Counted from the stretch's first letter, positions 629 to 43,590 are shown. The stretch is DNA of 64,000 nt from Amoebophrya sp. A120 (GCA_905178155.1 CAJINV010000003.1:4029253-4093252); one strand, 5' to 3'. Program-made: numbers and translations. The notes: a model not told the origin generated them from the letters alone.

Positions 629-878
629 AGTTGTCATGCAGATTTGCAATGACAAGAACATTTGTGATGCGCATCCCTATGAGGGGCATTTCCAGTCGTG
701 TTTTGGAATTTGTAATGCTGTAAACAGGATACGCATCTCGATTTGTGATGCGGCTGTCCCTGCTAACCTGCACTACACTACGGGCTGCAACTTGTCATGC
801 GTGGTGTCCAAAACTCCAGGATCTGTGTTGCAGAGATCCCAACTTAACTATGGTGTGGGGACGTTTTTACTCAGGATA
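629..878. mobile_element. Introner family B, left TIR missing
   Basis: Right end tggtgtggggacgtttttactcaggata matches family B; the interior is the reverse complement of 4415-4698; similarity stops at about 629. Confidence 0.75.
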
Positions 879-3558
879 GCACGCCACGTTGAGAATGCCA
901 AGGTCCGAGAAAAAACTGGCCGCTAGGACGGTGGAGAGGACAATGGTGAAGATCACAGCTGTCCGCGATTTGTCTCCGCTGTTTTTGAATGGCGACAGCA
1001 TGGGGTTCAGCATCAACGGGTACACACCGAGACAAACAACCGACATTCCCGCTCGCGCAATCACGGAGTACCACGCACCCGCTGGAAGGTTGGATAAGAC
1101 CTGACAGTGGCATGGTAAACAACAGAAGATAGAAGTACTATACATACAAGTTGTAGGAAATGAATGTGCGATAAATTTTGTGCGAAGCCAGCCTTTCAAC
1201 TACATGCTAGTAAAAAATCAATGAGCCGCATATTGATACTACAAAAAGAGATTCTACTTCAGGAGCGTCAGCAGTACCGAAAAGATTCTACTTCAGCGCC
1301 AGCAGTAGCACGAGCATCCGAGGAATAAGAGGAAGAGCAAAAAACTTCTTTATTTGTACGTTTCCCTTCACTTCGGAGCCGTAAGTCATGTATGCGAAGG
1401 AGGAGAAGCTGGTGAACAGGGTCCAAAGTATCGTAAAGCTGAGCTGCAGAACTTTCGCGAACTGGGCTGGGCTTCGTTTTTCCATGGTCTCATACATCGG
1501 TAAAATGCAGGGCTGAATCACCATGGCCATACAGATGGCCGAGATGTAGGTGATATTTCCCGACGTGAACCCCAAGAAGCAGACCAGATCCGGGCCACTC
1601 ATTGGTTCCGTCAGGCTGCGAGCAGAATCAGAGCGTACTATGGCACTCGTCTCCTGCAGCAAGGACGCTGGGGGTGTACGACCTGGCACTGCAGCAGCAG
1701 CTGCGGCAGCCGCTGCTGCGGCCGCGCTCGGTTGTGCATGCTGCATGATCTCTTGGTGCGACATCAAGGGTCCGCCCTCCGGAGAAGATGGTATCGCTTT
1801 CTTCACGAAGTAATTGTAGACCACGGAGAAGACGACGAAGCAGTTGCTGAACACCCCGAGGGAGCTGGTGATTGCCAGTCGTTTTTGCGACAAAAAACAC
1901 AGGGGGAGAATCAGCAGCGCGCCGCAGATGACCGGCCAGAGGCGGCTGAGGTCGCTCCAGCCGGTGATAAAGCAGACGGTCGGGACCACCGAGTCCGCGA
2001 TGATGATGAGGTACCCGACCAGGGCCAGCCAGTAGGAAATCCAGATGGCCCCGGCGCAGGACCTTTTCCACGTGCCGCCGGAGAAGAGAAAGTTGCACTG
2101 CTCCAGCAGGTTCTCTATGGAATGCAAATATGTCTGGGTCTGGTTCTGGAGAAATGCAACTTGTGATGCGCATTTCACAACACATAAAAATCACTCATGC
2201 ACAAGCAGCAAAACCAAAAGCTGCCCACTTTCTGTCACCAAAGTGGGGCATTTGTCATGCGGATTTGCCATTGCGGAAGCTTCTCCAAACCTGTGATGCT
2301 AGCGCTTCCATGCCAGACCTTCTGTGTCATGCAAAAGCAGCATGACTCTTCCAGACCCAGACATTTTTGCATTTCATATTCTCCATGTCGTAGACCTGCA
2401 GAGCGTCGGCGCGGCGCACCATCGACATCATCGTGTAGTAGGAGAGGAACAAAATGCCAAAGTTCCACACGGCACCGTTCAGCAGTCCGGCCCCCGCGGT
2501 GGTCCACGGAAGGGACATATGAAATGCAAAAGTGTCTGGGTCTGGAAGAATGCGCGATTTGTCATGCAGCTTTTCCATGACCCATGAGGTCTGGAATGCA
2601 GGACCTAGCATGACAGATTCTGTGCGATCTCTCTCATGCCTATCCTGCGTGAGAAACTCCCTCCCGACTTGGTCAAAACTGGACGACTTTTGGTAGTCAT
2701 GCAACACAGATTTTTGCATGCTTCAGATTTAGCATGACAAGTTGCAATCTTCCAGACCCAGACATTTTTACATTTGATAGGACAGAATCCCGGCGCCAAG
2801 ACCACACAGGACCATGTTCACCGTGAGCCGCTCGAACGAGACTTGTTCGACAGGTTGTTCTATCAAATGCAAATATGTCTGGGTCTGGAAACTTGTAATG
2901 CTGAGTTGGAAATAGTGAATGCTCTGTAATGGATGTACAGCCAAGCATGAGAAATATTTTCGTGCCTAAGTGTTGCGGTTTCCGCATGACAAGCTGCGTT
3001 TTTGCATAAGAAGCAAAGGGGTCTCTGTCTTCTTGGACGCGCATCACACACTCTTCAGTCATGCCAGACAGGCATGACAAACCCTGCATCCTTCCAGACC
3101 CAGACATAGTTGCAATGCATATGTTCGGCGGTTGTACTATTGTGATTTTCAACGAGCGGCCGGTCCGCCTGGTCCGTATCAACTGCAAAAATGTCTGGGT
3201 CTGGAAGGATGCAAACTTGTGATGCGTGTTGCGGATCATACAAAAATCTGCGTTGCGTGACTTGCAAAAGTGCCCATTTCTGGCCATGCTGAGGGGGCAT
3301 TTTTCATGCAGAACAGGCATCACAGAGGGGCTGCACATCCTGTGATGCTAGGTCCTGCATTCCAGACCTCATGGGTCATGGAAAAGCAGCATGACAAATC
3401 GCGCACTCTTCCAGACCCAGACATTTTTGCATTAGATAGTCCGCTGCCGGAGACGAATCGTTGCCGTCATTCTCGCCGATCCGCAAGGTGATCTGTTCCG
3501 CGGTTGGAAGCGTGGCTGTCCCTTCATCAGCCGTCGTCGTGGCCGTGGATTTTGACAT
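879..3558 (-). CDS. Amino acid transporter, AAAP/Aa_trans (SLC36/38-like), multi-exon; 3' end unresolved
   Basis: ATG at 3558 (MSKSTATT). Removing four family-A elements (each plus one TSD) gives ...SPAADQADRPLVE...RLTVNMVLCGLGAGILSLPWTTAGAG...ALQVYDMENLLEQ..., containing the AAAP G-x-G-I-L-S-L-P motif. GT-AG intron 1359-1101 joins KGN|VLSNLP. The frame runs into the broken element at 878 after LGILNVAC. Confidence 0.85.
2116..2378. mobile_element. Introner / non-canonical intron, family A (263 bp)
   Basis: TIR tatggaatgcaaatatgtctgggtctgg / ccagacccagacatttttgcatttcata; TSD ttctc; removal restores VYDMENLLEQ. Confidence 0.92.
2518..2779. mobile_element. Introner family A (262 bp)
   Basis: Same TIR; TSD ggaca; removal restores GAGILSLPW; interior inverted relative to 3177-3438. 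Confidence 0.93.
2861..3121. mobile_element. Introner family A (261 bp)
   Basis: Family-A TIR; TSD tgttc; removal restores TTAEQPVEQ. Confidence 0.9.
3177..3438. mobile_element. Introner family A (262 bp)
   Basis: Family-A TIR; TSD gtccg; removal restores PAADQADRP. Confidence 0.92.
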
Positions 3559-4167
3559 AGTGGCTTTTTCTTCTTGATGTTGGGTACAATACCTATTTCT
3601 TCAAAGGCTTCAACATCAACACGGAAATCGATTTGCAGGGTTTTGCTTTTGCTTCGCACAGCATGATGTTCCGTAATATCCTAGATGCAAATATGAATCC
3701 TTTTGCATCATGAGTTAGTGCTTTTCTCTCGTCGGCCTCCTTATCATCTGGGTGGAAAAAGATGGAGGTACGGACACTCCCGCAATTTTTTCCTTTGTGC
3801 AACTTCTTGTGCGCCACGTTTTCGTTTTGTAGTGCTGCACCGACGGGGTGCAGCACGGTAGATCATGCTTGAACAGCCTACCACGTCGGTTCCTGCCGTT
3901 GTTGTGTCGCTGCAGGTTTCCCCATTCGTACGCGAAAAAAAAAAGCACAGTTTTGTTCTTAAAATTGTAGTGAAGTCCAGCTAGACTAGGAGCAGTAGGT
4001 TCTTCGACGCTGTCGCAGTTTCGCCTGCTTAAAGACATGTAGTGAAATACTATTAGCTTTGTTCGCTGCGTTCCGTACAACGCACGGAAGTTAGTGGAGT
4101 TATTCCTTTGTTTGTGTCGAGTAATGTTCACGGCCAAGGCCATTTCCATCATTTTTTCGATCTACTT

Positions 4168-7100
4168 CTACAGTAGATTATTTGTTTTTATTTCCTTCGT
4201 GCTGTCGTGCACGCGGCGTCGGAGCTTATCGAGGAACCGGCCCACTTTCTGGTCCAGATCCTCGATCGGGAGAAAGAAGTCCATGTATTTGAGGCTTCCC
4301 TGGGGATCCACCACGGCGTTGGTGTCGCTGGAGTTGCGCAGGTCGACGAGCGGCAGCTCGAGGTAGTCGTAGCCGACGCTGAGCGTCTTCGCGAACTCGG
4401 AATAGTAGCCGTGGTATCCTAGAGAAAAACGTCCCCACACCAGAGTCAAGATGAGGATTTTGCAACACAAACCTTGATTTGAAGTTTTGGGAGCCCCGCA
4501 TGACAAATTGCAGGCTGTATTGTAATGCAGTTTAGCAAGGGATGTCGCATTACAAATCCATCTGCATATCCTGTTTACAGCATTACAAGTTCCAAAACAC
4601 GATCGGGAATGCCTATCATGGGGATGCGCATTACAAATGCACTTGTGCTTGCAGATCTGCATGACAACTCTGGGGTGGGGATGTTTTTACACAGGATACG
4701 TGGTTGGTGGTGGTCAGCGCCGTGTCGTTGCAGTGCATCAGTGGGTTTGAATTGCAAAAGTATCGTACTCGTGTAAATGCATTACAAATTTCCTCAGCAT
4801 GAGAAATAAAATTTGTAATGCTAATTTGCCCTAAGAACAGGATTTGTAATGCATTATTGCAATACGAGTACGATACTTTTGCACAGGATACCGGGGAGTA
4901 CTTGAGCGCCCGGCGCTGAAGCAAGACCCGGTCGAACGCGTGCGAGCCTTCGTCGCCCGAAATCCCGAAGTGAATCTTCTCCTCCTTGGGGTTCTGGATC
5001 TGGTCCAAGTACGGCTCCAACGTTTGCCACATGTAGGGCTTCACGCCCTGGCACGTCTGCTGGAAGTTGATCTCCAGAAGCATCGCGTCCGGCTATCAAA
5101 TGCAAAAATGTCTGGGTCTGGAAGGATTCGAATTTGTGATGCGAAGTCTACATCAAGATAAAATCTGTCATGCATGGCTAGCAAAAAGCCCCATTTCTTG
5201 TTTCCGAGAAGGAGGATTTGTCATGCGGATTAGGCATTGGAATAAGTGCTCAAAATCTGTGATGCTAGAGCTTGCATGCCAGACGATCTGGGTCAGGCAA
5301 AAACTGCATGACAGATCTCGCATTCTTCCAGACCCAGACATTTTTGCAATCCATACCGGCTGCATCCACACGAGGTTCGTCACGTCCGCCCCGTGCCGCG
5401 CGATCACCAGGACGGCCCGCTGCATCACCCGCACCTGCTCGCACTATCCTGTGCAAAAGTATCGTACTACAGTAATCATAGTCATGCATTACAAATCTCC
5501 TTCTTAACCTCAATCCGCATTACAAATTCCACTTTTCATGCTGAGGGGATTTGTCATGCGATTTATACTAGTACGATGCTTTTGCATTTCATACGCACGG
5601 CGTTAGGTCAATCATCCGCAGAACATGGAGCGAAAGCTTCAGTTTCCGAGGTGGAGCAGGAGGATTATTTCTGGTACTGTCGTCGTGGTCTACTTTTAAA
5701 TCCTCTTCCGTGTAGTTGTCGTCCAGATCTTCATCCTCGCCGCCCAGGCACTCGTTCACGTTGGCGGAATGCTTCAGCGAGAGTTTTTTCTCGAAGTAGG
5801 ACACGATACCCTCCAAGTTCGTCCACTGGCGCTGCCCGGCGACACGACCGTGCCGTAGAATCAAGATACACCGGCGACCGCCGAACTCGCCCGGGAGGGT
5901 CCGCTTGTTCCATCGCGAGTGTAGTCCCCGTGGTGCGTGGTCGGGCTGCTTGTTAAAAAAGGTATCAGCCGGAGTTGTATGTTCCAGAGCTCCTCCTGTT
6001 GGACGAGTAGTGTCAGGTCTTGGAATTTTACACATGTCCCACACTCGCGCGCGTAGGAGGTGTGCGCTTTTCGTACTACATGACAAACCGTCTCGCGCCT
6101 TCTGCACCACCCAGTCAACGCGGTGGCGGCTGTAAAAGCCGGTCAATATCAAAAGAAGAAACTGCTTCACTGTAAGGATTTTGCAAGTTTTGCATTGCAA
6201 GTTCGCTACACATTACAAAGAAAACTTGCCATGCGAGGATCCTAAGGGAAAACACCGCTAAAAGTCACTTGTCTTGCATGTGTAGCAAGACAAACACTTT
6301 AGTGATGCTTTTTCTGCATTACAGGTTTACAGTGAAACAGTTTTTCTTTTTTCTTGCGATAGTCAAGACAGCAAAGGTAATGGAGCGCAGGTTGCTGACG
6401 GATTCGTGCCACGTCGCGATCTCGACGGGTTCGTCGGCCTCGTTGCCGAAGAGAAACCTGGTAGTCGCCATTTTTCTCTGTACATAGGCCTCGACATGCT
6501 CGGCGTAGCAGTTTGCAACTTCAGCAGGGAGCAGTAGATCATGCGTGGCTGCTTTAGTTTGCGAGTTGCGCAACTCTTCATTTTGCCCAGCAGCTTCTTG
6601 GTGCTGGATAATTCCACGACTTTCAATATCAGGCGCAGGTTTGGTGCAACGCTTTCTGATAGAGGCAGCGATCTGATGAATCTTGCGCGAGGTGGGTAGT
6701 GAATTACTAGGAGTTCTAGCCGATGACTGATCGGATGACGATGACTCTGGATCGGGTTCCGTTTCTTGTCCAACCGATCCGGCGCTGCTTTTTTGTGCTG
6801 CAACCGACGGCTCCTTTATCGGTATGCGTCGGTCTAGAAACCGAAATGCGGCCGTGCGCCAGGGACCTCCGCACATGCCGCCAAAGACCTCTTCGTTGCA
6901 CCCATGGGTGCCGGAGTACCCCACCCTGCAGTCCGCGTCTACCACTTTCGGGAACCGCGCAATGTCAAACTGTTTTTCGGATTCCTCCTCCAGCTCCAGC
7001 TCCGCGTCGGTGGACCAATACATAACGCCGAAGGACAAGGACATGGTTTTGCGCGTGCAAAAGCAGAAGTTCCCGTCCTGGATCCCGAAGTACGCCGTGT

Positions 7101-9324
7101 GGTACTGCAGCCGACACACCCCCGCGCAAGACTCCAGCATGTTCAAAGGGAGCCGGCCGACCGAGATCTCGAACGCGCGCTCCAAAGTGTCGTCGGAGAA
7201 GCAGCCCATGTATTCAAAACGCGCCTCCCCGGGCGCGAGGGTGTCGTCCGAGGCTGGCGACGAGTCCGCTTCTGGCTCCTCAGTGCCGCCGCGCCGAGAT
7301 GAAATTGCATTTGCAAGACTCTCATCGTCAACATTATCTACTTCCGAAGGAGGCCCCTTTGCCGCGAAGCGTATCAGCTGGTACCAAATTGCATTTCGAA
7401 GTTCGACCGCGGGCGCAACCCCGGTCTTCTTGGCCCTCTGCCGGGCGGGAGACCACCTGTGGCACTGCGCGTCCTCTCCGCCATTGCAGAACTCCGCCCC
7501 GGTGAAGTAGGGATGTTGTTCTGGTTCACCGTGGTCTTGGTTATTCAGGCGCGGAAAAATGATGGACTGCAAAACCACGTCTAGGAGGAGATTGTTGTGC
7601 GGCAACGTGTCCCTCCAGTCGTGCCAGAACTTCGTGCCCATGATGAAGACCTTCAAGTTTTCCTTCTTGACCAGGTGCAATAGCCAGGAGTTCGGGGAGA
7701 GGAGCTCAAACAGCCAGAAGGCCCAGCGGGTGAAGTGCGAGATGTTGCGCAGCTCGCCAATCATGATGTACAGCTTCTTGTCAACTTTGTGCAGGTACCA
7801 CTGCGGGTCAATGTCTTGCATCTTATCCACGATCACCACACGCCCGGGGTTGTCGCGGCTGCGCGCGAGAAAATGGTACACGATGTCGTGCATAATCGGA
7901 CGGTGCTTTGTCACCAGCTTCTTCTTCTTCTTTGTCGCTGCAGAATAAACGGTCGTCTGCACTGCGGTGGCGTCAGCGGTCGTAGTTGAAGGCGGTTCGG
8001 TTCCCGGCGTTTCGGTCTCACTGGATAATTCGTCTGTTGCTTCGTCGTCATCCTCCTCCACGACAACCGGCGTGCCACGAGGATCTCGCACCATACGATG
8101 CACAAAGTTTCCGGAGAAGCCATAACGATGCTGCATCAACTGCCAGCCGCGCATATGCGCTGCGTAGGTTTGTTGGTTCTGCTCCTCATCTGTTTCTAGG
8201 GAGCGGATAGCCATGCTGTGCTGTTCTTCGAGTAATTGGTGCAGCAAGGGTTTCGATTTATCTTGATTCGCATGATCTTCACCGAGAAGCTGTTGTGCGG
8301 ATGTCAATGCAGCAGGCTGAGTCTCTTTCTCCATTTCCTCGCTGAAGCAGTGGTCCCAGAGTCCCGCAGTGAAACTTTCGAACAGGGAGGCGGTGCGTGT
8401 GGGGTCCTTTCGCGCGTCCTTGTGCTCGCACTTCACGAACCGCTCCGCGATCTGGCGGCGCAGCGTCATCACCGAGGTTTGCTTGTTATGAACGTTTCGA
8501 ATGGGCACGATTTTGTTGAGAATTTCGTCTTCGGTCTCTGACATGTATTCTAGACTCCAGGAGTTGAAGCCCCCATGGCTCCAGAGGTTCTTCAGGCCAC
8601 CGTGTCGTACGAGCAAATCAAACGGTGTCCGGGTCGCGGTCGTGCCGGCGCCTCGCGCTGCTAGCATCGGGGCTCGTTGATACATCTTCGTCTTGGTGGC
8701 ATGTTGTTCGGGGCTCGGGCTCGCATTCGGGCTCAACAGTCCCTCCGCGGACGCTGGTACAACTACGTGCTCGCGCGAAGCGGGAGAGACTTCGGTGGAC
8801 ACTCCAAATATATCTCGTTCCAGTTCTGCCCGGACTGCTTGACTTGCTTGGGAACGCGTTGAAACGTCGCTCGGGGATAATCCAGGGACCTGTTGCTGAG
8901 TGGTTCTTGCGGCAGCCGCGCCCACTTGTTCTTCGGATCCTGGGTCGGGGGCTGCTGAAACGGGTGGGGACGCGGACGACCCACCAGTGCTGGCGACCCC
9001 ACATGGCGCGAGCAGCCATAGGTGCATGAAGTCCAGCGCCACCTTGCGGCTCACGAAGGAGTTCCGGAAGAAGAATGTGTCGCTGCAGTTCAGTCTCAGG
9101 CTGCCCAGGTCCAATCGCAGGCGGCCGCTCTGGCCGTGCAGTTGCGCCTTGAGAAATTCCTGGTCCATGTTGACCTGCGTGTCGGTTCTTGTCACTCGCT
9201 GCTCCACCATCTGGTCCTCGTCCGCCTGGGGCTCCACTTGCTTGTGGTGCTCCACTTGCGCCTGACTCCGCAGAACCAGAAGCAGGGTGAGCTGCCATTT
9301 CTTCATCGACAGGAGGAAGATCAT
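4168..9324 (-). CDS. Large secretory-pathway glycosyltransferase, GT61/DUF563-like, with an internal WSC domain; five introners
   Basis: Hydrophobic N-terminus. WSC motif YMGCFSD...CAGVC...YFGIQDGNFCFC at about 7050-7220. After removing the elements the C-terminus reads MIDLTPCEQVRVMQRAVLVIARHGADVTNLVWMQPDAMLLEI, matching the GT61 EQ..M......HGA..TN..(F/W)M.P...LLEI signature. Stop at 4168. Confidence 0.8.
4415..4698. mobile_element. Introner family B (284 bp)
   Basis: TIR tatcctagagaaaaacgtccccacaccagagt / actctggggtggggatgtttttacacaggata; TSD cgtgg; removal restores TTNHGYYSEF. Confidence 0.92.
4746..4890. mobile_element. Introner family C (145 bp), decayed end and TSD
   Basis: TIR core tgcaaaagtatcgtactcgt / acgagtacgatacttttgca; left end is ttt rather than tat; flanks gtggg vs ccggg. 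Confidence 0.8.
5094..5355. mobile_element. Introner family A (262 bp)
   Basis: Family-A TIR; TSD ccggc; removal restores VWMQPDAMLLEI. Confidence 0.93.
5445..5593. mobile_element. Introner family C (149 bp)
   Basis: tatcctgtgcaaaagtatcgtacta ... tagtacgatgcttttgcatttcata; TSD cgcac; removal restores LTPCEQVRVMQ. Confidence 0.9.
6147..6361. mobile_element. Introner family D (215 bp)
   Basis: Imperfect TIR tatcaaaagaagaaactgcttcactgtaa / ttacagtgaaacagtttttcttttttcttgcgata; TSD gtcaa; removal restores ITFAVLTGFYSR. Confidence 0.85.
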
Positions 9325-10289
9325 CCATGATTATTTCAAGCTGCAATGTGCGGGCGAAACAAGCCGGGCTAAATTACAAGATACAGGTTCAGGTCCACAG
9401 GATCTGGAACGATCGTAATGGGGCAAAAGCCGTTTATTTGTGATTGTGGGTCTTAGGCTTGTTGTTGATTTCAACAAACACAAAGCAGAAAAACATAAGG
9501 GTGACCCTACATGGAAATGGAAAACAAAAAGGGGAAACCAAAAAAAAAACGAAAATAAAATGCCAAAAAGAGAAGAAAGAGCGGACAAAACCAAAAAATT
9601 ACCTAACACTTCGGTTTGCATTTGCATATCAACATTTCAAAACGATCTTGTACTTTTGACAAAGAACAAGTCCACGCCACGTGTTCGTTTTGAAGTTTTC
9701 CTTCCTCCATTGCCGTGTATCTTTTCGTAGCTTTTTCGAAGTTTCTTCTTCTTTCCAAACCTTTGTACAGTCATGTCCGTCTTGACCGCCCAGTCAAAGT
9801 CCTGCGCTGCGGCCGGCAAACGATAATTCCGCGGTGCCTTAATACTGGATTCCCAGGGCCAGCACAAGGCATTTTCATTCCAGCCTAACGCAGTACTTGC
9901 AGGCGTAGTCGAAAATTCTCAGTAATTGTAATAGTAAACTCAAAGTATTCAGTGTGTGCGTGGCCGAGCGAAAAAGCGCCACAGCTGCATATCATTGAAA
10001 ATGCAACACGCTGCTTCCACGTTGGCGGCAAGCGCTGCATTTTCCTGTCAATTGAAATACTTGGATAATTAAGTGTGATCGAAGTGTTACCTTGTGAGTG
10101 AAGTGTGACTGTGAGTGTGCCTTTTCGAAGAATGCATGAGCAAGGGCAAAAATTGTGAAACAGAAACAAAGCGCCGATCTCCGAGGACGGATGGAAGAGT
10201 CGCGAGTCCGTAGTCTTGTTTCGCCCAACAGCGAGTAAGAGACGGCTCCTGGTCCTGCTCGACTTCGAGCGTTCTTGTGATCGTTCTTC

Positions 10290-13200
10290 TCACTCCCCGA
10301 CGACTAAAGGCTTGAGCTTCTGCGCGAGGACGTCTTTCTTTTCGCGAAGCTCCTGGATCTGTGCCTCGATGGTCTGCATGCGGGACTGGAACTCCTCGCT
10401 GTATTGCCAAAGAATCACCGACTGTTGCTTGTTGATGTCGATTTTCTTCTCGGCGTTGTCGATCAGAATGTTCATCAGGCGGCGCTTTACCTTTGCCTCC
10501 AACACTTGGCGGAAGAGCTCGAGACGCTTACCGGCCTTCAGGATGTTCTTCTTGACCTGCAGCCACTCCTTCGCACTGGTGGGCTCTGGTATGGGTTGCT
10601 TGGAGACGTCGAAATTTTGTCTCACCTTGGTGATCACCTTGCCCCCCTCGCACGCCGTGAGCAGCGAGTCCAGGAGGAGTTCATGCAGCACAGCGATGCC
10701 GCCGTGCTCCACGTCTTCGGTCTTGTTGTCCTCCTCCGACTCTCCCGCCTTTTGCAGGCTGTTCTTCCGTACCTCCTCGTCGAGCTGCCGGTCGATGTTG
10801 CGGATCTCGCTGTGCGACAAAAATTCGGGCATCTGCAGACTCTCGAGCATTTCTTGGTTCTTGTTCTGCCCGGGCCGCTTCAGCTTCTTCTCGAGCCCCT
10901 GCTTGAAGCGGCTCAGACTCGTTTTGCTGTTCGTCATCGTCTTGCTCGCCTCCTCTTCCTCCGCCTCCGTCTTCTTCAGCGCGCCGACCACCTTGATCTT
11001 CTGGCCTGCCTCGCTGCTGGTCGGCGACCCTCCGCTGGGCGCGAGCACGATGTGCGGGTAGTACTCGTGGTATTTGCTCATGCCGATCTTTTTTTCCACG
11101 TCCTGCCGGATGTTTTTGGTGTTCGCGGCGCAGGCGTGCTCCATGCTGAGCTCCACGATCCCCCGCTTAAGATTTTCGTCCGCGATTTTTGCCGCGAGCC
11201 GTGCGAGTTCGGGGCGCTCGTAGAACCGCGCCCGTACATCCGCGTCTCCGGCCTCGCCAATACCGATTTCCAGTGCAGCCTCGTGATGGTCATGAGCTTG
11301 TTGTTCTGAGGGTGGGAAGCACACGCGGCAAAGTTCCTGCACGAGATCGGGATCCGTTTCCTGCCGTAGTGCGTCGGGGAGAACTATTTGATTCGCCGGC
11401 CCTTCCGGATGGTCGTGGTCACTTTTGTGGCCGCCACCGCCCCCGCTTTCCGCTCCCCCCGGCCCACCGAAGTCGGAAGTGGCGCCGCCTCCACCACCCC
11501 CACCTCCCGCGCCTTCGCCGTGCGCGGTCGTGCCACCCCCCGCGGGAGAGCCGGTACTACTGTGGTGGTGTGCGGCATAGACACTACGACCGGTTGTCGA
11601 CAAGCCGTCGAGCAGCAGCAGATGTCGGAGCATCTGCCACTTTTGCCAGAAGTGATCCCCCGTCGGCTCCATCACGGTGCTTTCATCCTGTTTACCCTTG
11701 CCCCGACCGAACAGCTTCACCACCGAAAGCAGCACCTTGTTCGAGGTGAGCGCGTTTTCGCAAAGCAGCGCCGCGTTGCGGAAGATGCCGTACACCTGCT
11801 TCTCCTCGCGGTGCACTTTCCAGGAGTACACCATCACGGCCAGAAATTGCTTACTCAGGATGAAGAAAAACGTCGACTGAAAAACCCAGAACAACACGTA
11901 CGTGAAGGTGTATTTCGCATCTGGTCGTTCGTTTTATTTTTCTTTTTGTTTTTCTTTTTGTGTACTACTAGTACTACTAGTACTAACTGGAGCGAAAGGA
12001 GAGAACGAATTTCTTCCTACTTGCTGTTGCTGCGCCTCCATGCTCATTGGTGTGCAAACGCGAGGGCTGTTGACGTGATGAAAGTGGGAAAAGGTCATTG
12101 ACCGCCGCAGCGAAAATGAAAATATAAAGAAAGTGCGGCAAAAATAAAAAAAGCACGTGGATACTATACCCAAAAGATCCTGCAAAGCAAAGACGTCGCC
12201 CATCATGAAGCGAAACAGGGACAGCACGGCTCGAAACGGGCTGGCAAACGACTCCAGGATGGTGCCGAACTGAAGGTGGAAGAGAATGGCGAAGCCCAGA
12301 AGCAGCATCAAGAGGACCAACGTGAATTTCGCCACTTGGTCGATGCAGCGCGCGAGGGCTTTCACCAGAGTGCCGATCATGCCCGTGCTGGACCGGTAGG
12401 AGATCTGGCAGGGAATCTCGAGCCCGTTGATGTAGTGCTCAAACCAGATTTTTGCCGCGAACGGGTCGCCGTTGGCCGCCGCTTCCTTGCGGGCGCGGTC
12501 GTATCAAATGTAAAAATGTCTGGGTCTGGAAGATTTTGACACTTGTCATGCACGTTTTGCATGAGCCATGATGTCTGTGATGCATACCCTAGCAATACAG
12601 ATTTTTTGAGGGCTTCTTGATGCCTATTCCGCATGACAAATGCCTTCTCAGCGTAGCAAAACGAGCACTCCCTTTGCTACTTCTGCAATACAGATTTTTT
12701 TGGAATCCAAATGCAGCATCACAATTTGCATTCTTCCAGACCCAGACATTTTTACATTTGATAGGTCGAGCAGCACCACCATGAGCACGTCGTTGATGTG
12801 GGTCACAATCCATCCGGGACGAACGCCGGCCGTCTCGGCAGCCCCGATGCCGCCGATGCGCGGGAAGGACTGGGTGCCTACCACCGGCTTCTCGATGCTG
12901 TCGTCCCAGATATAGTCGATTTCCTCCACCGGGTTCTCGTCCTGCTTGTAGTTCACGATAGCGGTGATTTCCCCGAAGTACTTGAGGATGCGCAAGGCCA
13001 GCAAGAAGGAGTTGATCGCGCTCCACGCCACGAACGTGCCCCACTGGCTCGCGGCTTCGGCAAACAGGTTCAACGTCTGCTGGTCTTTCCACTCGACGAC
13101 TGGGAAAATGTGTGGGAATTCAAAAATTATAGGCTTATTCAGGAATGCGAGCGATGCAGCGCCAGTGGCAAGATGAGACGGAGTGGGACGAGATTGCTCT

Positions 13201-26247: not shown

Positions 26248-27067
26248 CCTGGTGCCGATGCCGCGCTCGCGGCCCCGCCTCGCAGAGCGGGTGGACGGCT
26301 TTTGCGCTTGCTAGACCTGGTCTTGCAGCGGCAAGCCAGCGAGGACGAGACGAAGCACACTGTCGTCGCTACATGATTGCCTTGTTGTCGTTGTTCATCA
26401 GGTTCCGATCTCGTAGCCGGGCTGCACTTTCTGCTGCGAAGTTTGAGGAGATACTGATAGATGAGATAGACGTCGAGATGCTTTATTGTTCATCATCTTC
26501 ATTGAGATATTTTTTTACATATACCAAGATGCTTGTGCTTGTCGTTATGCGTCGTCAAAAACCTCCCTCGTTTCTTACAGCCATCGCTCCCGCTCCGTGA
26601 ACCTGACTCGAACTCTGTGTACATAGCCAGAGAGAGATACTAAAATCCTCGGAAAACTGCATGACAGGCTGGAAACACGAATGCGCAAGGTTGTAGAGCG
26701 AAAGAATGACTTTCACGTTCCGACACGCAAAAGCTTTAGCCTGCGAAAGTTACATTCGCTAGCATTCCACCTTCATCAACTGCCGAATGTTTAGTACGCA
26801 TGAAAAAGTGTGAGTTGAAGAACTACGACTACGAGCTTAATCTTCGATAGCCACGATGTAGCGCCACAAAGAAACATAAGTAGAGTCTTTCTATATGAAT
26901 CTAGAAGCGGACACATAAAGTGCGTTGATTTTCCATGGTTTCGTCGTTTCGTTTCTCACCTATCTATGCATGTGAAAGAAGTTAGAGTTACGTTGTTCGC
27001 GATGTTACATCAACAAAGACCACAACTTCCATCTATGGTCCATCTGTTCTTTACTTTTATCGAATCA

Positions 27068-32128: not shown

Positions 32129-32861
32129 CGTGGTCGCTGGTGCAGCTGGGGGCAGCTTTTCAATTCGTCCTGGTGCTGCTCCTTGCTCAAAACAAGTGTG
32201 CTCAGTAGTCTTGTGTTGGAAGTAGAGGAACTTCAAAGATGAAACGCTCGGTTGCGGAACTCGACAAAGAAAACGATGACTGTTGCACCCTTATTTGGTG
32301 TTGACCAGCAGACACAAGGTAAAGTTGTTCGCATCGCAAAGAGGAAGAAAAAAGTGTGGGCGTTTCCAGGTAAGCAAAAAGAAAAAACCAAAACATAAAT
32401 GAGCTGATCAAGGCACGGTTAGGATCGTTGTGGCGACGCGGCGCGCACGGGCGCAAGAAATGGAAAAGCAACGGGATGCTACCTCTCGTGTCTCTCCCTC
32501 TCTCTAGTATGTGTGTATGGAGCCTTTGAAAAAACCAGGGGCTTCAGCGCTGTTCAACAGTCGTCCGTGTGAACAAAACCAGAACGACAAAGTCAGCCAA
32601 GTAGTAGCGTCAAGAGTCAACGTGCCTGCTTCTTTGACGCTTGACGTCATTTTTGGCATTCCAATAAATTTTCTACTTTCTAGTTTTTCATGTGTCCGGA
32701 TATTCTTTGGTGTTCTTTTTTGCGTTGTCGATGTGGATGTTGTCGCCGTTCTTTTCATTCTCTGTCCCCATATGCCACTTGTTTGCTACGAATAGGCACC
32801 AAGTGCAAAGCGAAAATGTAAATAGTCACGTCCCAATTCCACATTGTCCAATGTATCTCCC

Positions 32862-34112
32862 TATCCTGTGCAAAAGTATCGTACTCGTATAAATCCGCTA
32901 CTGGCATGAATATAACTTCTCACCAACTTCCCAACAACTTATGATCAACTTCTTCCCAACCTTTTCACCAACTTCCCAGCTGTTGAGAAGTTGGCGTAGA
33001 CCGCTTGCCGCGGTTGTTCCGACGCTTGACGCAGAGTTGAAATCCACGCGAAGCTCCTGACAGGCTTCCGGCTAGGACGTCTCAGAAGGAATATCCCGGG
33101 CCTCGATTCGTGGCCGCACGTAAAAAGCACGCCGACGCCGCATTTTGCGGCAAGCGCGGCGCGTTACATCAATTAATGCACAAAGCAATAACTCACTTCT
33201 CAACAACATCTCTACGCACTTCATCTTACCAGCTTCGCGACGAACATTCCGGCGCATTCTGCGGCAAGCTTTGAGCTTTTGGAGGCGTCATGCTAATTCT
33301 TGCATGACGCCTCCAAAAGCTTAAAGCTTGCTGCGAAGTGCGTCGGGAAGTTCGTCGCGAAGCTGTTGAGAAGTGCGTGGAGAAGTTGTTGAGAAGTGAG
33401 CTATTGATTTGCGCATTACTTGATGTAGGGCGCACGCAAACTCGCGTTTTTTTGTGAAAACAAATAAAACGCAGACAATATATCAATTGATTAGCTGAGT
33501 AATTGGCTGCTCAGCTAATCAATTAATTAATCAGCGCCAGGCGAGAATGGCCGGCGTTCAAAGCTTGCCCGCCCAAGCCGCGCGCAGCTCCACATCGCCG
33601 AGGGAAGCTGTCTTCCGCTTCCGGCGATTCTTTCTTTGATGGCTGCACGCAGGACAGATGCGCGCGCGCAGAAATCACGGTCGCGCGGCCTGCCGCCTCT
33701 TGTATACGGCTTTGCGCGTGGTACCGTCGTGCTAACTGATGAAACTGCACTGCAGATAAACGGACAGAACAAGACTGCGGTCTTCTTTCCATTTATCTGC
33801 AGCGCTGTTCCTTCCAGCTCTTGCAGCTGCAGTGGCAACTGCAAGCAGCGAGCACGATATAACTCGCAGCGACGGAGTGACGCGACGCGTCGCTTGGTCG
33901 AGGCGAGAACGACGCCAGCATGTCGCGGCGCGACGCCACTTCTCACCGAAGTTGGTGCGGAAGTCGGTGAGAAGTGGCGCGCGCCACTTCTCACCGACTT
34001 CCGCACCAACTTCGCAACCAACTTCGCAACCGACTTCTCACCGACTTGTCCGTCAGATTCTGCATAGAAATTTTAGCGGATTTATACGAGTACGATACTT
34101 TTGCACAGGATA
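32862..34112. mobile_element. Intergenic non-autonomous TIR element (1251 bp) with family-C ends
   Basis: Perfect 39-bp TIR tatcctgtgcaaaagtatcgtactcgtataaatccgcta; TSD ctccc; no recognisable transposase; internal caacttc repeats and palindromes. Confidence 0.92.
33165..33427. repeat. About 263-bp foldback palindrome
   Basis: Arms tacatcaattaatgcacaaagcaataactcacttctcaacaac...gcttttggaggcgtcatgc pair with the reverse complement ending gatgta; loop near 33294-33301. Confidence 0.85.
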
Positions 34113-34823
34113 CTCCCTGTAGTCACAACTCGACGTCGCAGAGTAGAAGAAAAACAATTCAAGTTGTTCTTCATCCAACTACGGGCAGCTGTTGACCTCT
34201 GCGTCTGAGCATCTTCATGATTCGCGGCTAGCTCTGAGCAGTAATTGCATAAAGTTGAACTTCATGTGTTTGTTAAAACTCTGATGTTGAGTTCGTGCTA
34301 CAGGTTCTGTAAGAAACAGAATGATCTATAATTGCGCTGTACATGTGACGAAGCCCCCGCTCTTGCTCTTTAGCCTCCCTCTCCGTCAAATAAATCGTAC
34401 ACAAAACTCCTCGTCCTGTACTGCGAATAGGCTTTGTTTTTTCGGTAAGCTTTTTGTCAAAACAGGAAAATAGGGCTTTGTTCGAAAGGAAAACAGATCC
34501 AGGTCGTAAATCAATGTAAGTAGTACCGCCTCAAAATTTGTCAGTGATGTATAGAAAACAAAATCATACAGGGTACACAAAGCGTCGTACAATCGTTTTT
34601 TTATAGTGAGTCTATGATGAAAATGAAATTGAAAACAACAGGCCGATAAACAGCGCAACATTTTTTGGGTTGTACTGGCTCTACATACACATAGTATGTT
34701 TAGTCTGCAAAATAAACTACTTATATGCTTGTCGTGATTTTTTCAGACGTATGCGACAGCACGTTGTTCCAAAAGCACGCTGGCGCGCCGTTTTCAACCG
34801 ATATTAAATCGATCGTTGTCTGT

Positions 34824-35420
34824 TTACACGACCAGCAGCTCGTCATCAGAGCAGTCGGAAAAGTCGTCTTCGTCGACATCCAGGAATTCCGGGTATTCGT
34901 GTCCGCCGATGTGCTCGTCGGACCCGGCCTGGACGTAAGTGACGTGGGCGGGGGCAGGCTGGGCAACCTGAAAGGCACCACCGACCACAACGCGAGACTT
35001 GTTGTAGTGGACACCCCAGATCGGGGGGTTCCAGCAGCACGCCGCGTAGCAGCCCATGCAGGAGCAGGGCCAGAAACCGATCCCAAAAAGCGGAATCCAC
35101 GCAAAGATGGCCGCCACACTGCACCCCTCGTAACTGGTCAGAACGCAGGCTGGGCAGCACAGGGAAGCGCAGCAGGTGGGGGCGACGCGCTTATCGCAGC
35201 CAAACTGTCCAATCGGGTTCTTGTCGTCACGGCAGGCGACCGGGGGCATCGGAGCGTCCTTAACAACGGTCACCGGAGCAGGGGCCGGTTGTGCTGGCTG
35301 CTGCACATAAACCGGTTGCGGTTGCGGCGGGGCACCACCCTGAACAGTGACATTCACATGGCCCGGGTGCGGCTGCGGCACCGGCTGCGGTTGATGTTGA
35401 ACATAGACTTGTTGTGCCAT
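34824..35420 (-). CDS. Pro/Gln-rich N-terminus plus Cys-rich hydrophobic protein (PLAC8/CYSTM-reminiscent), copy 1
   Basis: 198-aa ORF; CCASLCCPAC motif, hydrophobic segment, acidic tail. The family resemblance is tentative. Confidence 0.75.
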   Translation of the reverse strand: MAQQVYVQHQPQPVPQPHPGHVNVTVQGGAPPQPQPVYVQQPAQPAPAPVTVVKDAPMPPVACRDDKNPIGQFGCDKRVAPTCCASLCCPACVLTSYEGCSVAAIFAWIPLFGIGFWPCSCMGCYAACCWNPPIWGVHYNKSRVVVGGAFQVAQPAPAHVTYVQAGSDEHIGGHEYPEFLDVDEDDFSDCSDDELLVV

Positions 35421-36643
35421 TTTCGACTGATTTATTTGTTGCAGAAAGAACTACCAAAAGTGTAGTAAAACTAGTACGAGATTCTGAAGCAGTAGCGGGT
35501 TGGTAAAACACTTTTTTACCTACTAGCTAGTTGCGGCGTCGACAAATTCAACAGGAGAACTCACTGTTTTGATATTCATCAACTACGGATCATCATCACG
35601 GAAGAAAAACAGAAAATGGATTCAGGATAGAGAAATGGTATTTCCAGATCAAGATCTTTGCGAACCGACTCCACAAAATCTAGAACAAAATCAGCTTCTT
35701 CAGATCAGATTCTACATGCATGATCCATTTCTGATTCTGGCAAAGGATCTAGTACTTAGCCTGGCATTTTTTTCTTTGGATCTTCGATCTTAATTCATCT
35801 GGGTCTCAGATGATGAGGTCGTTGTTGAGCGACCTGTTCCTGGATCTGGAATGTGATCATTTGCCCTCACATATTCTACGCGTGACCTCCCAAAAACATT
35901 GAGAATGCTCAGCAGTTCATCGAGATCGCCCATTAAACATGTTGTTTGTGGGCATTCGCATTCGGTTGCCAAACACAACCGCAACAAATTCAAGTTGTTC
36001 TTCATCCAACTACGGACAGCTGTTGACCTTTGCGTCTGAGCATCTTCATGATTCGCGGCTAGCTCTGAGCAGTAATTGCATGAAGTTAAACTTCATGTGT
36101 TTAATTAAAACTCTGTTGAGTTCGTGCTACAGGTTCTGTATAGAAACAGAATGATCTATAATTTCGCTGTACATGTGACGAAGCCCCCGCTCTTGCTCTT
36201 GAGCCTCCCTCTCCGTCAAATAAATCGTACACAAAACTCTCCGTCCTGTACTGCGAATAGGCTTTGTTTTTTTGGTAAGCTTTTTGTCAAAACAGGAAGA
36301 TAAGGCTTTCTTCAAAAGGAAAACAGATCCAGGTAAACCAGTGTAAATAGTACCGCCTCAAAATTAGTCAGTGATGTATGGAAAACAAAATCATACAGGG
36401 TGGTACAATCGTTTTATAGTGAGTCTATGATGAAAATGAAAACAACAGGCCGATAAACCAAAACCGCACAACATTTTTTGGGTTGTACTTGCTCTACATA
36501 CACATAGTATGTTTAGTCTGCAAAATAAACTACTTATATGCTTGTCGTGATTTTTTCACACGTATGCGACAGCACGTTCTTCCAAAAGCACGCCGGCGCA
36601 CCGTCCTCTTCAACCGATATTAAATGAATCGATCGTTGTCCCT

Positions 36644-37240
36644 TCACACGACCAGCAGCTCGTCATCAGAGCAGTCGGAAAAGTCGTCTTCGTCGACATC
36701 CAGGAATTCCGGGTATTCGTGTCCGCCGATGTGCTCGTCGGACCCGGCCTGGACGTAAGTGACGTGGGCGGGGGCAGGCTGGGCAACCTGCATGGCACCA
36801 CCGACCACAACGCGAGACTTGTTGTAGTGGACGCCCCAGATCGGGGGGTTCCAGCAGCACGCCGCGTAGCAGCCCATGCAGGAGCAGGGCCAGAAACCGA
36901 TCCCAAAAAGCGGAATCCACGCAAAGATGGCCGCCACACTGCACCCCTCGTAACTGGTCAGAACGCAGGCTGGGCAGCACAGGGAAGCGCAGCAGGTGGG
37001 GGCGACGCGCTTATCGCAGCCAAACTGTCCAATCGGGTTCTTGTCGTCACGGCAGGCGACCGGGGGCATCGGAGCGTCCTTAACAACGGTCACCGGAGCA
37101 GGGGCCGGTTGTGCTGGCTGCTGCACATAAACCGGTTGCGGTTGCGGCGGGGCACCACCCTGAACAGTGACATTCACATGGCCCGGGTGCGGCTGCGGCA
37201 CCGGCTGCGGTTGATGTTGAACATAGACTTGTTGTGCCAT
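36644..37240 (-). CDS. Same protein, copy 2
   Basis: 198 aa; differs from copy 1 at one residue (GGAFQ vs GGAMQ). Confidence 0.75.
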   Translation of the reverse strand: MAQQVYVQHQPQPVPQPHPGHVNVTVQGGAPPQPQPVYVQQPAQPAPAPVTVVKDAPMPPVACRDDKNPIGQFGCDKRVAPTCCASLCCPACVLTSYEGCSVAAIFAWIPLFGIGFWPCSCMGCYAACCWNPPIWGVHYNKSRVVVGGAMQVAQPAPAHVTYVQAGSDEHIGGHEYPEFLDVDEDDFSDCSDDELLVV

Positions 37241-38329
37241 TTTCGACTGATTTATTTGTTGCAGAAAGAACTACCAAAAGTGTAGTAAAACTAGTACGAG
37301 ATTCTGAAGCAGTAGCGGGTTGGTAAAACACTTTTTTACCTACTAGCTAGTTGCGGCGTCGACAAATTCAACAGGAGAACTCACTGTTTTGATATTCATC
37401 AACTACGGATCATCATCACGGAAGAAAAACAGAAAATGGATTCAGGATAGAGAAATGGTATTTCCAGATCAAGATCTTTGCGAACCGACTCCACAAAATC
37501 TAGAACAAAATCAGCTTCTTCAGATCAGATTCTACATGCATGATCCATTTCTGATTCTGGCAAAGGATCTAGTACTTGGCCTGGCATTTTTTTTCGCTGG
37601 ATCTTCGATCTTAATTCATCAGGGTCTCAGATGATGAGGTCGCTGTTGCGCGACCTGTTCCTGGATCAGGAATGTGATCATTTGCCCTCACATATTCTAC
37701 GCGTGACCTCCCAAAAACATTGAGAATGCTCAGCAGTTCATCGACATCCCCCACGAAACATGTTGTTTGTGGGCATTCGCATTCGGTATCGGTTGCTACT
37801 TAAACACAACCGCAATACACCATACACACGCACAGCGCAAATGTTGGGTGTCTATGTGCTCCACAACTGACTCCAAACTTTTAGTTTGTTCTCGGAAGTT
37901 GGAGTTCTGCGATAGCAATTTGACGTTCGTTATGGTCAATCAAGTCGAAGTCCTTGGCTGGCTGCATAATACCATATCGGTGACGGTTGATGCAGCAGAA
38001 CAAACAACTTGATCTGATGGGCATTTTTTTACAGGAGGGTCTAAATTAATACTATCTGGTTGGTAGCAGGTGCCAGTGTTGGAACGGCAACACTTTTGGG
38101 CATTTTTTACAAAAGGGTTCAATGCTAAAGAACAATCGAAAAAGTATTATAGTTTTGAGCAAGACATTTACAGGTCTGTCAAGAAACAAAGAATCTAGAG
38201 TTGATATGCGATCTTGAATTCTAACTCAGAAAACAAAGCGAAGTCTCCTGCTCCACCTACTGTAGCAGGTCCAATCATACAGTGAGTACAGCTCGAATCT
38301 AAAGATCGTTGATCCCGTGGTAGTACCTA

Positions 38330-41300: not shown

Positions 41301-43590
41301 GGTGCACGTAGGCCTCCCGAGCCTTGTTCATCTGCAGGTGCAAAAAGTCCTGCACCGTCTCGGCGCCGGGTTTGTCGAGCGGTGCCCGCCGGCGTTTGCG
41401 CAGCCGCTCCACGTAGGGGGCGTCCAGCAGAATCGCCTTGTCCTGCAGGTTGGCTTCCTTCGCCACCTTGAATGCCTTTTGTGCCTTCTCGAACGCCTTC
41501 TGTACTCGTGCATCGCGATCGTCGCGTACCTGCCGGGCTTGCGCCTCCATTGCCTTCGCGTTCGCGCCAGCTGTCCCGTCGCCCAGGGAACTGGCAGCCA
41601 CGATCGCAGCGGATTGCGAAAACTCGGCGGGGTCCAGCCCCAAAGCCGCGTAGTACTCGAGCGGGTCCGTTTGAAACTGCTGCATTGTTCTCGTCGCGCC
41701 CCCACCCGATGCTTCTTCGCTCGTTTCAATACCATCCGGGTCGCGGCGGTCCTCGTAGGCCTCTTCCGGTACCTCGATGCAGCTGTTGCCGCCGCGCAGC
41801 GATTCCAGGTACTTGTCCCCGCCCAGGTCCACCTGTTTTTCCAGTGCCGAAAATGCGTAGAAGTGGTGTTTCGCCGCCTCGAAGATGCGGTCCACCGTGT
41901 CCGGCCAGTCGCGGTTGCGGGCGTCCACGCCTTTCCCGGCCAGCTGACCGGAGATCGGGGTGCCCTGGGCGGCCGGCGAAAAAGCGCCGTTGATATCGTC
42001 GCTCGCGAGAACCAGTCGCCCGCCGCGGCACGCGAGCGTCCCGCTGGTGCGCATGGTGGCGCCAAAGGGCAGCCCAACCATCAACGAATCGCAACGGAGA
42101 TCGCGGTTTTCCGCAACGCCGTTTTGCACCAGCAACAGCTCGCCGTCCGCCCAGGGGCCCTGCAGCGCCAGCGCCCTTCTCTCGTTGTCGGCGAGCGTCG
42201 CCTCCGAGTCCGCGTCTTCGTGAGCCTCTACTTGTTCGCGCATCCCGCCGAGGTGTCCTGCTTTGAGAACCTCGGTGAGTTTGGGGTCTTTCAGGAAAGT
42301 CTTCAGATATGCACCAACGTCCTGAAACTTGTAACCGCCGTTCTTCTTGCTCGTCCGCAAAAGGTCCTGCGCGTCACCACTGAGGTTTACTTTCTCGGCT
42401 GATATTTTCGCCCCACCTCCATCAATTTTCGCAGCGCGGTCCGCCGCTTCCGTCGAGGAGAGTTGGGCCGCCTTGGTGAGCAACTTTTCTAAAGCTGCCC
42501 TCCGCGTATCGACCAGCGTCTGGAACTGTTTCTCTACCCGGGTCTCGGGATCCGCGAGCACGATGCGCCCCGCATTGGGATCGAGAACGAGGGTGAGAAA
42601 GAAGGCATCACTCGCCGCCCCGGCCGCTTTGTGGTACGGGTCGACCGCTCCGGACACATCGCCGAGGGCCTTCCACGCCGCCATTTTGGGGGTGCGTTCC
42701 TCGTCCAGAGCGGACCACTCGAATTTGTACACGCCCGGGCCACAGCTGCCCGAGGAGTACTTCTGGCGCATGAAGCCGTACACTTGGTTCACGCGCTCCT
42801 CCACACTGCGCAGCACCCCCGCTTGGTTGATCTCGCCGCGGAGGTAGCGATCGGGGACGTCGTCCAGGCTCAGCAACCGCCATATGGGACTCTCAAGCGT
42901 TACACTCTCAACTGTTACATGAATTTGTCATGCTAAAGCACCATCATCATCCACACGATCAAGCTGCTTCGCATGAAAACGCATGAAAAAAATGAAAAAT
43001 CCCTGTTTCCACGGCTGAGGACCGGCAGGTAGTGGGCGCAGGCGTTTGAGACGAAAAAAAAAACTCAGCCGATTTTGAAAAAATGGCCAGCGTCCTGATA
43101 CTATAAAACGCATGAAAAAAATGAAAAATACCTGTTTCCACGGCTGAGGTCCGGCAGGTAGTGGGCGCAGGCGCTCGACACAAAAAAAAAAAACTCAGCC
43201 GATTTTGAAAAAATGGCCGATTTTGAAAAAAAAAACTTAGCCGATTTAATTTGCGAAGGGCTAAACGGCATGAAGATCTGTGCCAAATTTGTAATGCGAG
43301 AGGCGCCAGCTACCTTCTTGCACTTTTCCTATTCTTTTTCTTGCATCACAAATTCATGTAGCAGTTGAGAATGTAACGTTTGAGAACGCCATACGCCACA
43401 TGTCCTCCCCGCCCTCCGCCACCGCGCGCAGGATCGCGTCTCGCGTTTCGGCTTGCCTCTGGAAGGTCCGCAGAAACGGAAAGGTGGCATGTGCCACGGG
43501 ATATATTTCTTGCACAAGAAGTAGACGCAGGACCGCGAGCACGCGAAAAAACACCGACGTCAACATCGCCAACCGAAAGGTCGTGGACAT
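38330..43590 (-). CDS. Large probably secreted protein with a degenerate J-domain-like segment and acidic low-complexity tail
   Basis: Signal-like N-terminus from ATG 43590; removal of the family-G element gives EDMWRLLSLDD; phase-compatible GT-AG introns 41026-40816 (MREK|LGNF) and 39449-39350 (EKE|AGAK); stop 38330. Confidence 0.7.
42883..43393. mobile_element. Introner family G (511 bp) with an internal tandem duplication
   Basis: About 51-bp TIR tatgggactctcaagcgttacactctcaactgttacatgaatttgtcatgc; TSD cgcca. Confidence 0.92.

Follow-up and report, generated by a model that had tools for sequence, protein, structure and literature searches.

Introners, MITEs (miniature inverted-repeat transposable elements) and subterminal transposase sites are already known. 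What is new here is one site that introner families of Amoebophrya sp. A120 share at phased distances from their ends, seen in a 64,000-nucleotide stretch of that genome (CAJINV010000003.1:4029253-4093252, the window) and in loci of a second assembly. The introners described in A120 carry inverted repeats that start with TAT and continue with seven looser bases and AAA, are flanked by direct repeats of 3-5 nt and have a mean length of ~240 nt (PMC7789003). The window elements match this description in their TAT/seven looser bases/AAA ends, their sizes, the co-orientation of their genes and their nature as non-canonical introns. The A120 family lengths in file 8 of PMC12130899 (~106, 149, 209, 234, 260, 278, 305 and 320) compare with 109, 150, 211, 236, 262, 280, 307 and 321 here. 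PMC7789003 describes 1,954 separate families with a variable direct repeat, whereas the repeat here is strictly 5 bp and lies outside TAT...ATA. The spread and splicing of tens of thousands of Amoebophrya non-canonical introns are stated there as open questions, and the text of that account mentions no internal shared motif or spacing rule. We found no literature report of the motif, and an internal logo may be present in the figures or family table of PMC7789003. The motif is apparently an unreported cis-code in a known introner system.

Among the A120 rows of PMC12130899, two of 50/58 name a superfamily (family 38, Ginger; family 65, Mutator) and none gives an internal motif. Family 38 has TA/TA termini, a 5-bp target-site duplication (TSD) and a terminal inverted repeat (TIR) of ~50 bp, as here, and likely belongs to the same system. 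Compared by description, it differs from the present elements in its length of ~808 bp and in its homology to the integrase region of Copia, a long terminal repeat (LTR) element (PMC12130899). Given the Copia element nested at 18691-26073 of the window, LTR homology like that of family 38 can also stem from insertion. IS3EU and GingerRoot resemble our elements in their TA..TA termini, TIRs and lack of a nucleotide-specific target preference, and an integrase-like DDE enzyme of this kind would suit the 5-bp stagger (PMC10045372, PMC6839031). However, their TSD is usually 6 bp, against 5 bp and no candidates at 6 bp here; GingerRoot elements are 3.9-12.9 kb long, the present elements lack a transposase, and the descriptions of IS3EU/GingerRoot in these two papers include no such motif. 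Because the 6-bp TSD is not found, we do not assign the elements to IS3EU/GingerRoot despite their TA..TA ends. A TG..CA integrase substrate, as in Ginger1/Ginger2 and LTR elements, was also rejected, as the ends are TAT...ATA and TGT with a 5-bp TSD yields just three candidates.

RAG/Transib signals have CAC..GTG ends, a short/long spacer pairing rule with a spacer difference of about one turn, a 9-bp inner motif and a 5-bp TSD. The introners share with them a conserved end, the spacer difference of about one turn, the 9-bp inner motif and the 5-bp TSD, but end in TAT rather than CAC (one CAC candidate) and commonly have both symmetric and asymmetric spacer pairs. A long/short pairing rule of the 12/23 type was rejected, since end pairs of 36/36, 46/46, 56/57, 36/48 and 48/59 all occur. 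The CACTA TnpA sites and the inverted repeat/direct repeat units of Sleeping Beauty are subterminal binding repeats. Subterminal arrays of transposase sites are common, as in piggyBac/piggyBat, hAT and Tn7 (PMC11707139). Like these arrays as described there, the introners have short, repeated, conserved sites inside both ends, asymmetric spacing and loose palindromes. Those arrays are family-specific, whereas here a single site is common to 14 families that differ in their TIR blocks, and the elements double as introns. The non-conventional introns of euglenids likewise have a TIR stem joining their ends, TSD-like repeats, non-canonical junctions and a proposed MITE origin; their end sequences are different, and a shared subterminal motif is not part of their description (PMC11282704).

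A motif shared across families at phased distances

The motif TTGTNATGC is nine letters long including an N position, and its two 4-bp halves flank this free base. The arrangement recalls the animal Sox-Oct composite element, a likeness that is probably a coincidence but that hints at a binding domain made of two modules. Counting both strands, there are 52 exact copies in the window, compared with 2.31 +/- 1.44 (maximum 6) in 100 dinucleotide shuffles, in line with the ~50 copies against ~2 by chance given in a preliminary description of the window. Fifty-one of the 52 fall within 5,846 bp of element DNA; the sole copy outside elements, at 23659, lies within the Copia pol gene. Neither motif nor element was found in the long gene stretches 6362-12501 and 43394-64000. 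All 19 end/motif coordinate pairs of the preliminary description were reproduced with their offsets, as were its exceptional offsets of 45 and 32, a one-mismatch site at 26091, three 31-bp offsets in family B and a family D element (6147-6361) with near-match sites and no exact copy. Its statement that the copies read inward holds for the sites that it listed but not for family C, in which the end-proximal exact copies (elements 4746-4890 and 5445-5593) read outward at 33-41 bp. Some families thus bear the motif in the outward direction.

The phased shared motif is real and is replicated outside the window. Metagenome contigs were scanned with the family-A TIR, which gave 142 loci from one other assembly, 127 of them non-redundant (656,091 bp). 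These loci have element families in common with the window (best hits of 75-90% identity) but not the host region. The motif was not used to find elements; 378 candidates were reduced to 345 by conflict removal, a few long ones being false pairings. Together with 17 window elements, the resulting 362 sequences fall into 14 multi-copy families, which have 345 members, and leave 17 singletons, and family-level counts exclude the singletons and elements >700 bp. Exact TTGTNATGC is present in at least half of the members in 14/14 families, whereas ~300 scrambled 9-mers average 0.11 families; the best scrambled 9-mer, with eight families, is the same motif shifted. A motif-blind k-mer count returned GCATGACA as the most widespread internal 8-mer (13/14 families). 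A two-strand expectation-maximization search merged the motif into a palindrome, so k-mer counts and a regular expression were used.

The motif is ~27-fold denser in element-like DNA (1,180 in 148,170 bp; 7.96/kb) than outside (150 in 507,921 bp; 0.295/kb). Of the 150 sites outside, 68 occur in clusters, and several clearly belong to elements that were overlooked or have decayed. When TAT was sought upstream of 148 scorable outside motifs without reference to a TIR, only weak bumps appeared, at 32-33 and 42. Isolated motifs also occur in AT-rich non-coding DNA (near 4349 in locus L026 and near 4553 in locus L012), at eight times the window chance rate; such motifs may be remnants in old introns without TIRs.

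The offsets of the motif are bunched. Among 690 ends, 305 of the 348 inward exact motifs within 60 bp begin at 31-32 or 39-43, and one begins before 31. Because family A served as the query, the offset count was repeated on the 380 non-A ends, where inward motifs begin at 31-32 (37) and 41-43 (32) and outward motifs at 33-34 (23), 42 (19) and 45-46 (20). If the site is treated as loosely palindromic, TG-N5-CA, its inward and outward copies fall on common centers: 6 (inside the TIR, in some families), almost none at 7-34, and then 36-37, 45-48, 56-57 and 66-69. A half-copy of the site, TGYAA, lies inside the TIR at 291/308 family-A and 77/84 family-C ends. On family consensuses, 22/28 ends have a site centered at 36, 37 or 44-48, whereas random placement gives 4.7-5.8 (maximum 15 in 20,000 draws); this range of centers came partly from the preliminary description and was widened after the data were seen. 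The first sites of the remaining six ends are centered at 39, 50, 56, 57, 59 and 60. Family A (308 ends) has offsets of 32 (46 ends), 33-38 (3), 39-41 (180) and 42-46 (19), and its offset-32 class may be one inherited deletion. Inter-site distances have a mode of 31-33, in agreement with the internal spacing of 31-34 bp claimed earlier, with further peaks at 35-36 and 46. Steps of 10-11.5 bp fit about equally well, 10.5 and 11 not being separated. The proposal that an inward copy lies at 39-42 bp whatever the TIR has to be replaced: first sites stand on three rungs (centers ~36-37, 45-48 and 56-60), in either orientation.

The motif is conserved beyond its surroundings. Motif columns are 0.85-0.99 conserved and other internal columns 0.67-0.82 in 7/7 aligned families (p<=5e-7 each), whose mean pairwise identity is 0.67-0.79; the N position (0.60-0.87) is mostly background-like. 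As the motif columns are kept amid drift, passive inheritance is refuted as the sole account. With TIRs and sites removed, the interiors of 5/91 family pairs align at z>4 and 86/91 do not. The TIRs show kinship: families 2, B, 5, E and 9 mostly match at 10-14/17 positions (B/E 14/17; E vs 9, 9), and D, G-like and 13 match at 12-14/17 (D/G-like 13/17). The TIRs had been called unrelated, which was overstated because several are related and conserved as sequence rather than solely as a hairpin; the mostly unalignable interiors are what stands of that claim. Judging by sequence, the element ends probably share ancestry, and the related TIR groups bring the number of independent tests nearer to 5-7 than to 14. 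TIR positions 11-30 are ~97% conserved within a family and differ between families. Positions 11-13 are A in 89-95% of the 690 ends, with AAA in 10/14 families and not in the other 4/14. At variable positions, the left TIR mostly agrees with the right TIR of its element no more than with a shuffled partner, the exceptions being A positions 10 and 14, B positions 19, 28 and 30, and the mixed family D. The view that the TIR only has to be self-complementary is not supported, given the common TAT, the frequent AAA and ends mostly without covariation.

The preliminary description named three outcomes that would speak against it, and the data gave none of them. The motif is not equally common outside elements, the distance-to-end histogram of the 656-kb loci has the predicted peaks near 31 and 40-42, and the family interiors mostly do not align (5/91 pairs do).

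Window elements, duplications and removal from RNA-like contigs

The window elements have TAT...ATA ends and 5-bp TSDs and interrupt minus-strand reading frames. They were located with a motif-blind, TAT-blind finder that used a flanking direct repeat and terminal complementarity as its sole criteria; at a 5-bp duplication it gave 16 window hits, 14 of which are TAT...ATA elements. Four elements with a decayed end, duplication or indel (4746-4890, 6147-6361, 15305-15587 and 629-878) were added by hand or from contig comparison. The features are as follows, motif positions being distances from the left and right ends unless stated otherwise.

629-878: family B element, reversed, left TIR missing; five exact motifs at window positions 631, 662, 710, 743 and 792
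2116-2378: family A introner, TSD TTCTC; inward motif 45 from the left end
2518-2779: family A introner, TSD GGACA; motifs at 41 and 39
2861-3121: family A introner, short-spacer subtype, TSD TGTTC; motifs at 32 and 41
3177-3438: family A introner, TSD GTCCG; motifs at 40 and 41
4415-4698: family B introner, TSD CGTGG; motif 31 from the right end, next at 62
4746-4890: family C introner, left end TTT, TSD 3/5; outward motifs at 33 and 38
5094-5355: family A introner, TSD CCGGC; motifs at 40 and 41, the latter with one mismatch
5445-5593: family C introner, orientation opposite to 4746-4890, TSD CGCAC; outward motifs at 41 and 34
6147-6361: family D introner, TSD GTCAA; near-match sites only
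12502-12763: family A introner, TSD GGTCG; motifs at 41 and 39
13540-13801: family A introner, TSD TCCGT; motifs at 41 and 39
13847-14126: family B introner, TSD CCACG; motif 31 from the right end
14799-15104: family F introner, TSD GATGC; motifs at 40 and 40
15305-15587: family B introner, TSD 3/5; motif 31 from the right end
18441-26133: putative family E introner, assigned by sequence, ~305 bp, split by a nested Copia, TSD CAGGG; motifs at 42 and 42
18691-26073, plus strand: nested Copia LTR retrotransposon, 464-bp LTRs 99.1% identical, own TSD GAAAG
19913-21166 and 21167-25528, plus strand: Copia gag and pol, one frame with a TGA between; RVT_2 E=7e-29
32862-34112: non-coding 1,251-bp element outside coding sequence, perfect 39-bp family-C TIR, TSD CTCCC
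42883-43393: family G introner, 511 bp, TSD CGCCA; motifs at 42 and 42

The layout is patchy, with 10 elements in 629-6361 and five in 12502-15587. The reversed element 629-878 aligns to the family-B copy 4415-4698 (80.5% over 257 bp), and the alignment covers 629-878 alone. The family-G copy is 511 bp long compared with 235 bp in its relatives, owing to an internal insertion with tandem duplication. The element 32862-34112 has no motif at 0-1 mismatch; each end has a 2-mismatch site at offset 42, the sole such site in the first 80 bp. Large palindromes (33159-33433) and a perfect hairpin of 34 bp (33947-34014) occupy its interior along with short repeats of its own; the interior has no match across the 656-kb loci. 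The complete young Copia is inserted 4 bp inside the right-end motif of 18441-26133, and both end sites are intact. Its gag and pol share one frame with a single TGA (21164-21169), which suggests stop-codon readthrough. A tandem duplication of ~1.8 kb with a small cysteine-rich minus-strand gene was seen by eye at ~34150-37780.

The 5-bp duplication is strict. In the other-assembly loci, TAT candidates number 378 at 5 bp compared with 29 at 3 bp, 16 at 4 bp and 0 at 6 bp, and six other end triplets yield at most three candidates each at 5 bp (TGT 3, CAC 1). When copies were found without using the TSD, it was perfect in 147/174 A, 29/41 C, 34/40 family 2 and 22/36 B copies. Target sites show no preference, just coding base composition. 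Family lengths are 109-322 bp, with up to 154 copies in the 656-kb loci and the window. The elements are non-autonomous and MITE-like: short, numerous, with a TIR and a TSD, and without coding capacity.

Precise removal of an element with one duplication copy restores reading frames and agrees with RNA-like contigs. Taking out four elements each in this way leaves 363 and 190 stop-free codons. Contigs of run X1, which are RNA by guess only, skip other introns too, whereas run X5 contigs read into elements; X5 repeat artifacts swamped the joint read table, and splicing was deduced from contig-piece arithmetic. In one X1 contig, the 324 nt between 4409 and 5594 equal exactly the length after loss of four elements and four duplication copies, and a 220-nt gap equals the 215-bp family-D element (6147-6361) plus 5, so that five elements are absent with one TSD copy each. 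The missing elements include 4415-4698 and the two oppositely oriented family-C copies 4746-4890 and 5445-5593. RNA-like contig pieces stop at 2110, near the element 2116-2378, whose removal leaves an open frame, and at 14793, beside the family-F element 14799-15104. A second X1 contig fits removal of the elements starting at 12502, 13540 and 13847; this requires two extra introns, and the frame is kept in 1/6 candidate pairs. Raw RNA runs X9 and X10 (89 and 4 partial reads, exon coverage nil) were uninformative. Among 305 elements with enough flank, 139 score as coding, and precise removal beats keeping both duplication copies in 132/139. GT-AG boundaries can be drawn at 3/139 of these and GC-AG boundaries at 1/139. 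The insertion phase is uneven (duplication start at codon position 3/2/1 in 66/41/32 of 139; p=0.001), which may be a scoring effect.

A proposed mobilizing protein and rival explanations

Does the motif act in DNA or in RNA? The elements show no preferred orientation relative to the host gene (A 33:24, C 9:7, family 2 10:5, D 3:8, B 7:9; none significant). The sites of family B nearly all point one way, so B pre-mRNAs carry either the motif or its complement. TIR mismatches in transcript orientation show no G-U bias (153 G-U vs 145 A-C, p=0.69), and in-register stems of 19-39 pairs form in both orientations in six of seven folded cases, the seventh pairing out of register. The two copies of a TSD differ at 61/1,515 positions (4.0%; 2-4% per site). 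Rare changes affect first-site cores at 58/2,472 positions (2.3%) in perfect-TSD copies and 17/490 (3.5%) in others (p=0.16), TIR positions 11-30 at 2.7-2.9% and the other interior at 7.3%. Since site cores change at about the TSD mismatch rate, resident copies have no clear protection after landing. Nearest-neighbor copies are 85-90% identical; with the divergence figures, this indicates that most divergence is older than insertion and that the motif is maintained along still-spreading lines. Because the elements sit in genes in either orientation, are spliced both ways, show no G-U bias and lose resident motifs near-neutrally, the tests lean, each indirectly, toward a role in double-stranded DNA (dsDNA) during transposition over a splicing signal. 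The preliminary description had left a single mobilization or splicing system as two options, and of these the tests lean to mobilization.

On balance, and with slightly better than even confidence, we propose that TTGTNATGC is a candidate dsDNA binding site of a mobilizing protein, probably an integrase-like DDE transposase or its partner. Such a protein would bind the end, that is, TAT and, in some families, a half-copy of the site at positions 8-12, and would contact inner sites on the same helix face. The first site is centered ~36, 46 or 57 bp from the end and the second often lies 31-33 bp further in. The two ends would then be paired, cut and inserted with a 5-bp stagger, and a changed spacer would persist chiefly when it differs by roughly one turn. 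For splicing, the elements would depend on the long TIR stem, which can form in either orientation, and not on the motif. The mover could be one enzyme or an enzyme clade with a common binding domain, either being compatible with this proposal.

A number of points weigh against the proposed binding site. PMC7789003, in which no transposase is reported for A120, argues against mobilization by a transposase. We found no transposase in the 80 longest of 171 open reading frames (ORFs) and no integrase-like match in the 656-kb loci. An autonomous, transposase-bearing copy was likewise sought among eight long candidates, and none was found in the small part of a genome that was covered. A 4,208-bp TAT...ATA candidate with an 871-aa ORF was rejected, since it consists of a host exon between two family-A copies that paired by chance. 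At L012:2624-6079, a C5 cytosine DNA methylase match is spread over two adjoining ORFs. The TIR patterns have no match in viral contigs or prokaryote genomes. Also adverse is the TIR block at 11-30, conserved within and differing between families, which one enzyme explains poorly; the claim of a single factor is weakened accordingly, as this block allows several cognate transposases and the protein was not found. The step is not sharp, so the pitches of B-DNA and A-RNA are not distinguished, and the palindrome is loose, with A after the site in 229/505 inward and 125/197 outward cases. Redundant sites could mask selection on single sites in the change-rate test. The element 32862-34112 looks freshly inserted yet has 2-mismatch sites only. 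Finally, the loci were retrieved with a family-A TIR, the kinship among TIRs makes the families less than fully independent, and run X1 is taken as RNA on a guess.

Both the shared phased site and the family-specific TIR block would be accounted for if a DNA-binding or chromatin protein of the host served several transposases as a shared cofactor by bending or phasing the ends, with each transposase reading its own TIR 11-30. We regard this as unlikely but worth serious attention. The signs of a dsDNA role fit it equally well, and the density outside elements in the other assembly (0.295/kb) exceeds the window chance level (0.036/kb). However, much of that outside signal is clustered, with several plainly missed or decayed elements, and 58 kb of window DNA outside elements holds one site, which is unlike a general host site. 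The TGYAA half-copy within the A and C TIRs is as expected of an end-binding enzyme, and a cofactor requires several transposases, none of which was found. It is rather improbable that the motif is a splicing signal, whereby a factor replacing the missing U1 would read it on pre-mRNA, or on DNA during transcription, and measure to the exon junction. Removal is precise, with one TSD copy, although GT-AG or GC-AG can so rarely be drawn, and U1 is described as undetected in A25/A120 (PMC7789003). Mismatches are frequent at positions 4-7, at the foot of the stem, so something must fix the junction. The weakest sites are in the sole window element outside coding sequence (32862-34112), and conservation within families alone cannot tell moving from splicing. 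A splicing signal is nevertheless hard to reconcile with tolerance of both orientations, the one-sided family B included, with three different distances, and with first sites that are unpaired between the two ends in B, C, D and other asymmetric families. Moreover, non-coding-like copies of family A are as site-rich as coding-like ones (4.3 vs 4.5; 14 vs 57 copies), and resident sites decay at about the TSD rate.

A motif with no present function, left over passively from one ancestral element or produced by mutation bias, is hardly credible. Common end ancestry is likely, as the TIRs fall into related groups sharing TAT and AAA and 5/91 interior pairs align. However, the motif columns are kept while flanks and the N position drift and copies are only 67-79% identical, the offsets are bunched with gaps between them, and 86/91 interiors are unalignable once TIR and sites are removed. 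Beyond the proposed dsDNA binding site, a bolder and distinctly doubtful extension is that one DNA-binding protein serves all TAT...ATA families, reads the motif in helical steps, moves the elements and marks them during transcription for excision free of U1 and GT-AG. If true, a transposon end code would double as a splicing code.

Implications for introner biology

The nested Copia in the window may explain the Copia reverse transcriptase and integrase domain hits of A120 family 3 (3,852 copies, PMC12130899 file 8), and the published LTR/non-LTR labels of some A120 families may likewise reflect nested retroelements. If the 7.7-kb Copia-filled intron is still spliced, introners would be safe landing sites.

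A shared, constrained and phased site, together with strict ends and a strict 5-bp duplication, arguably makes many introner families one transposon system. The motif offers a DNA bait for the missing mobilizing protein, a signature for autonomous copies and for old decayed introns, and a mutable element for separating moving from splicing.

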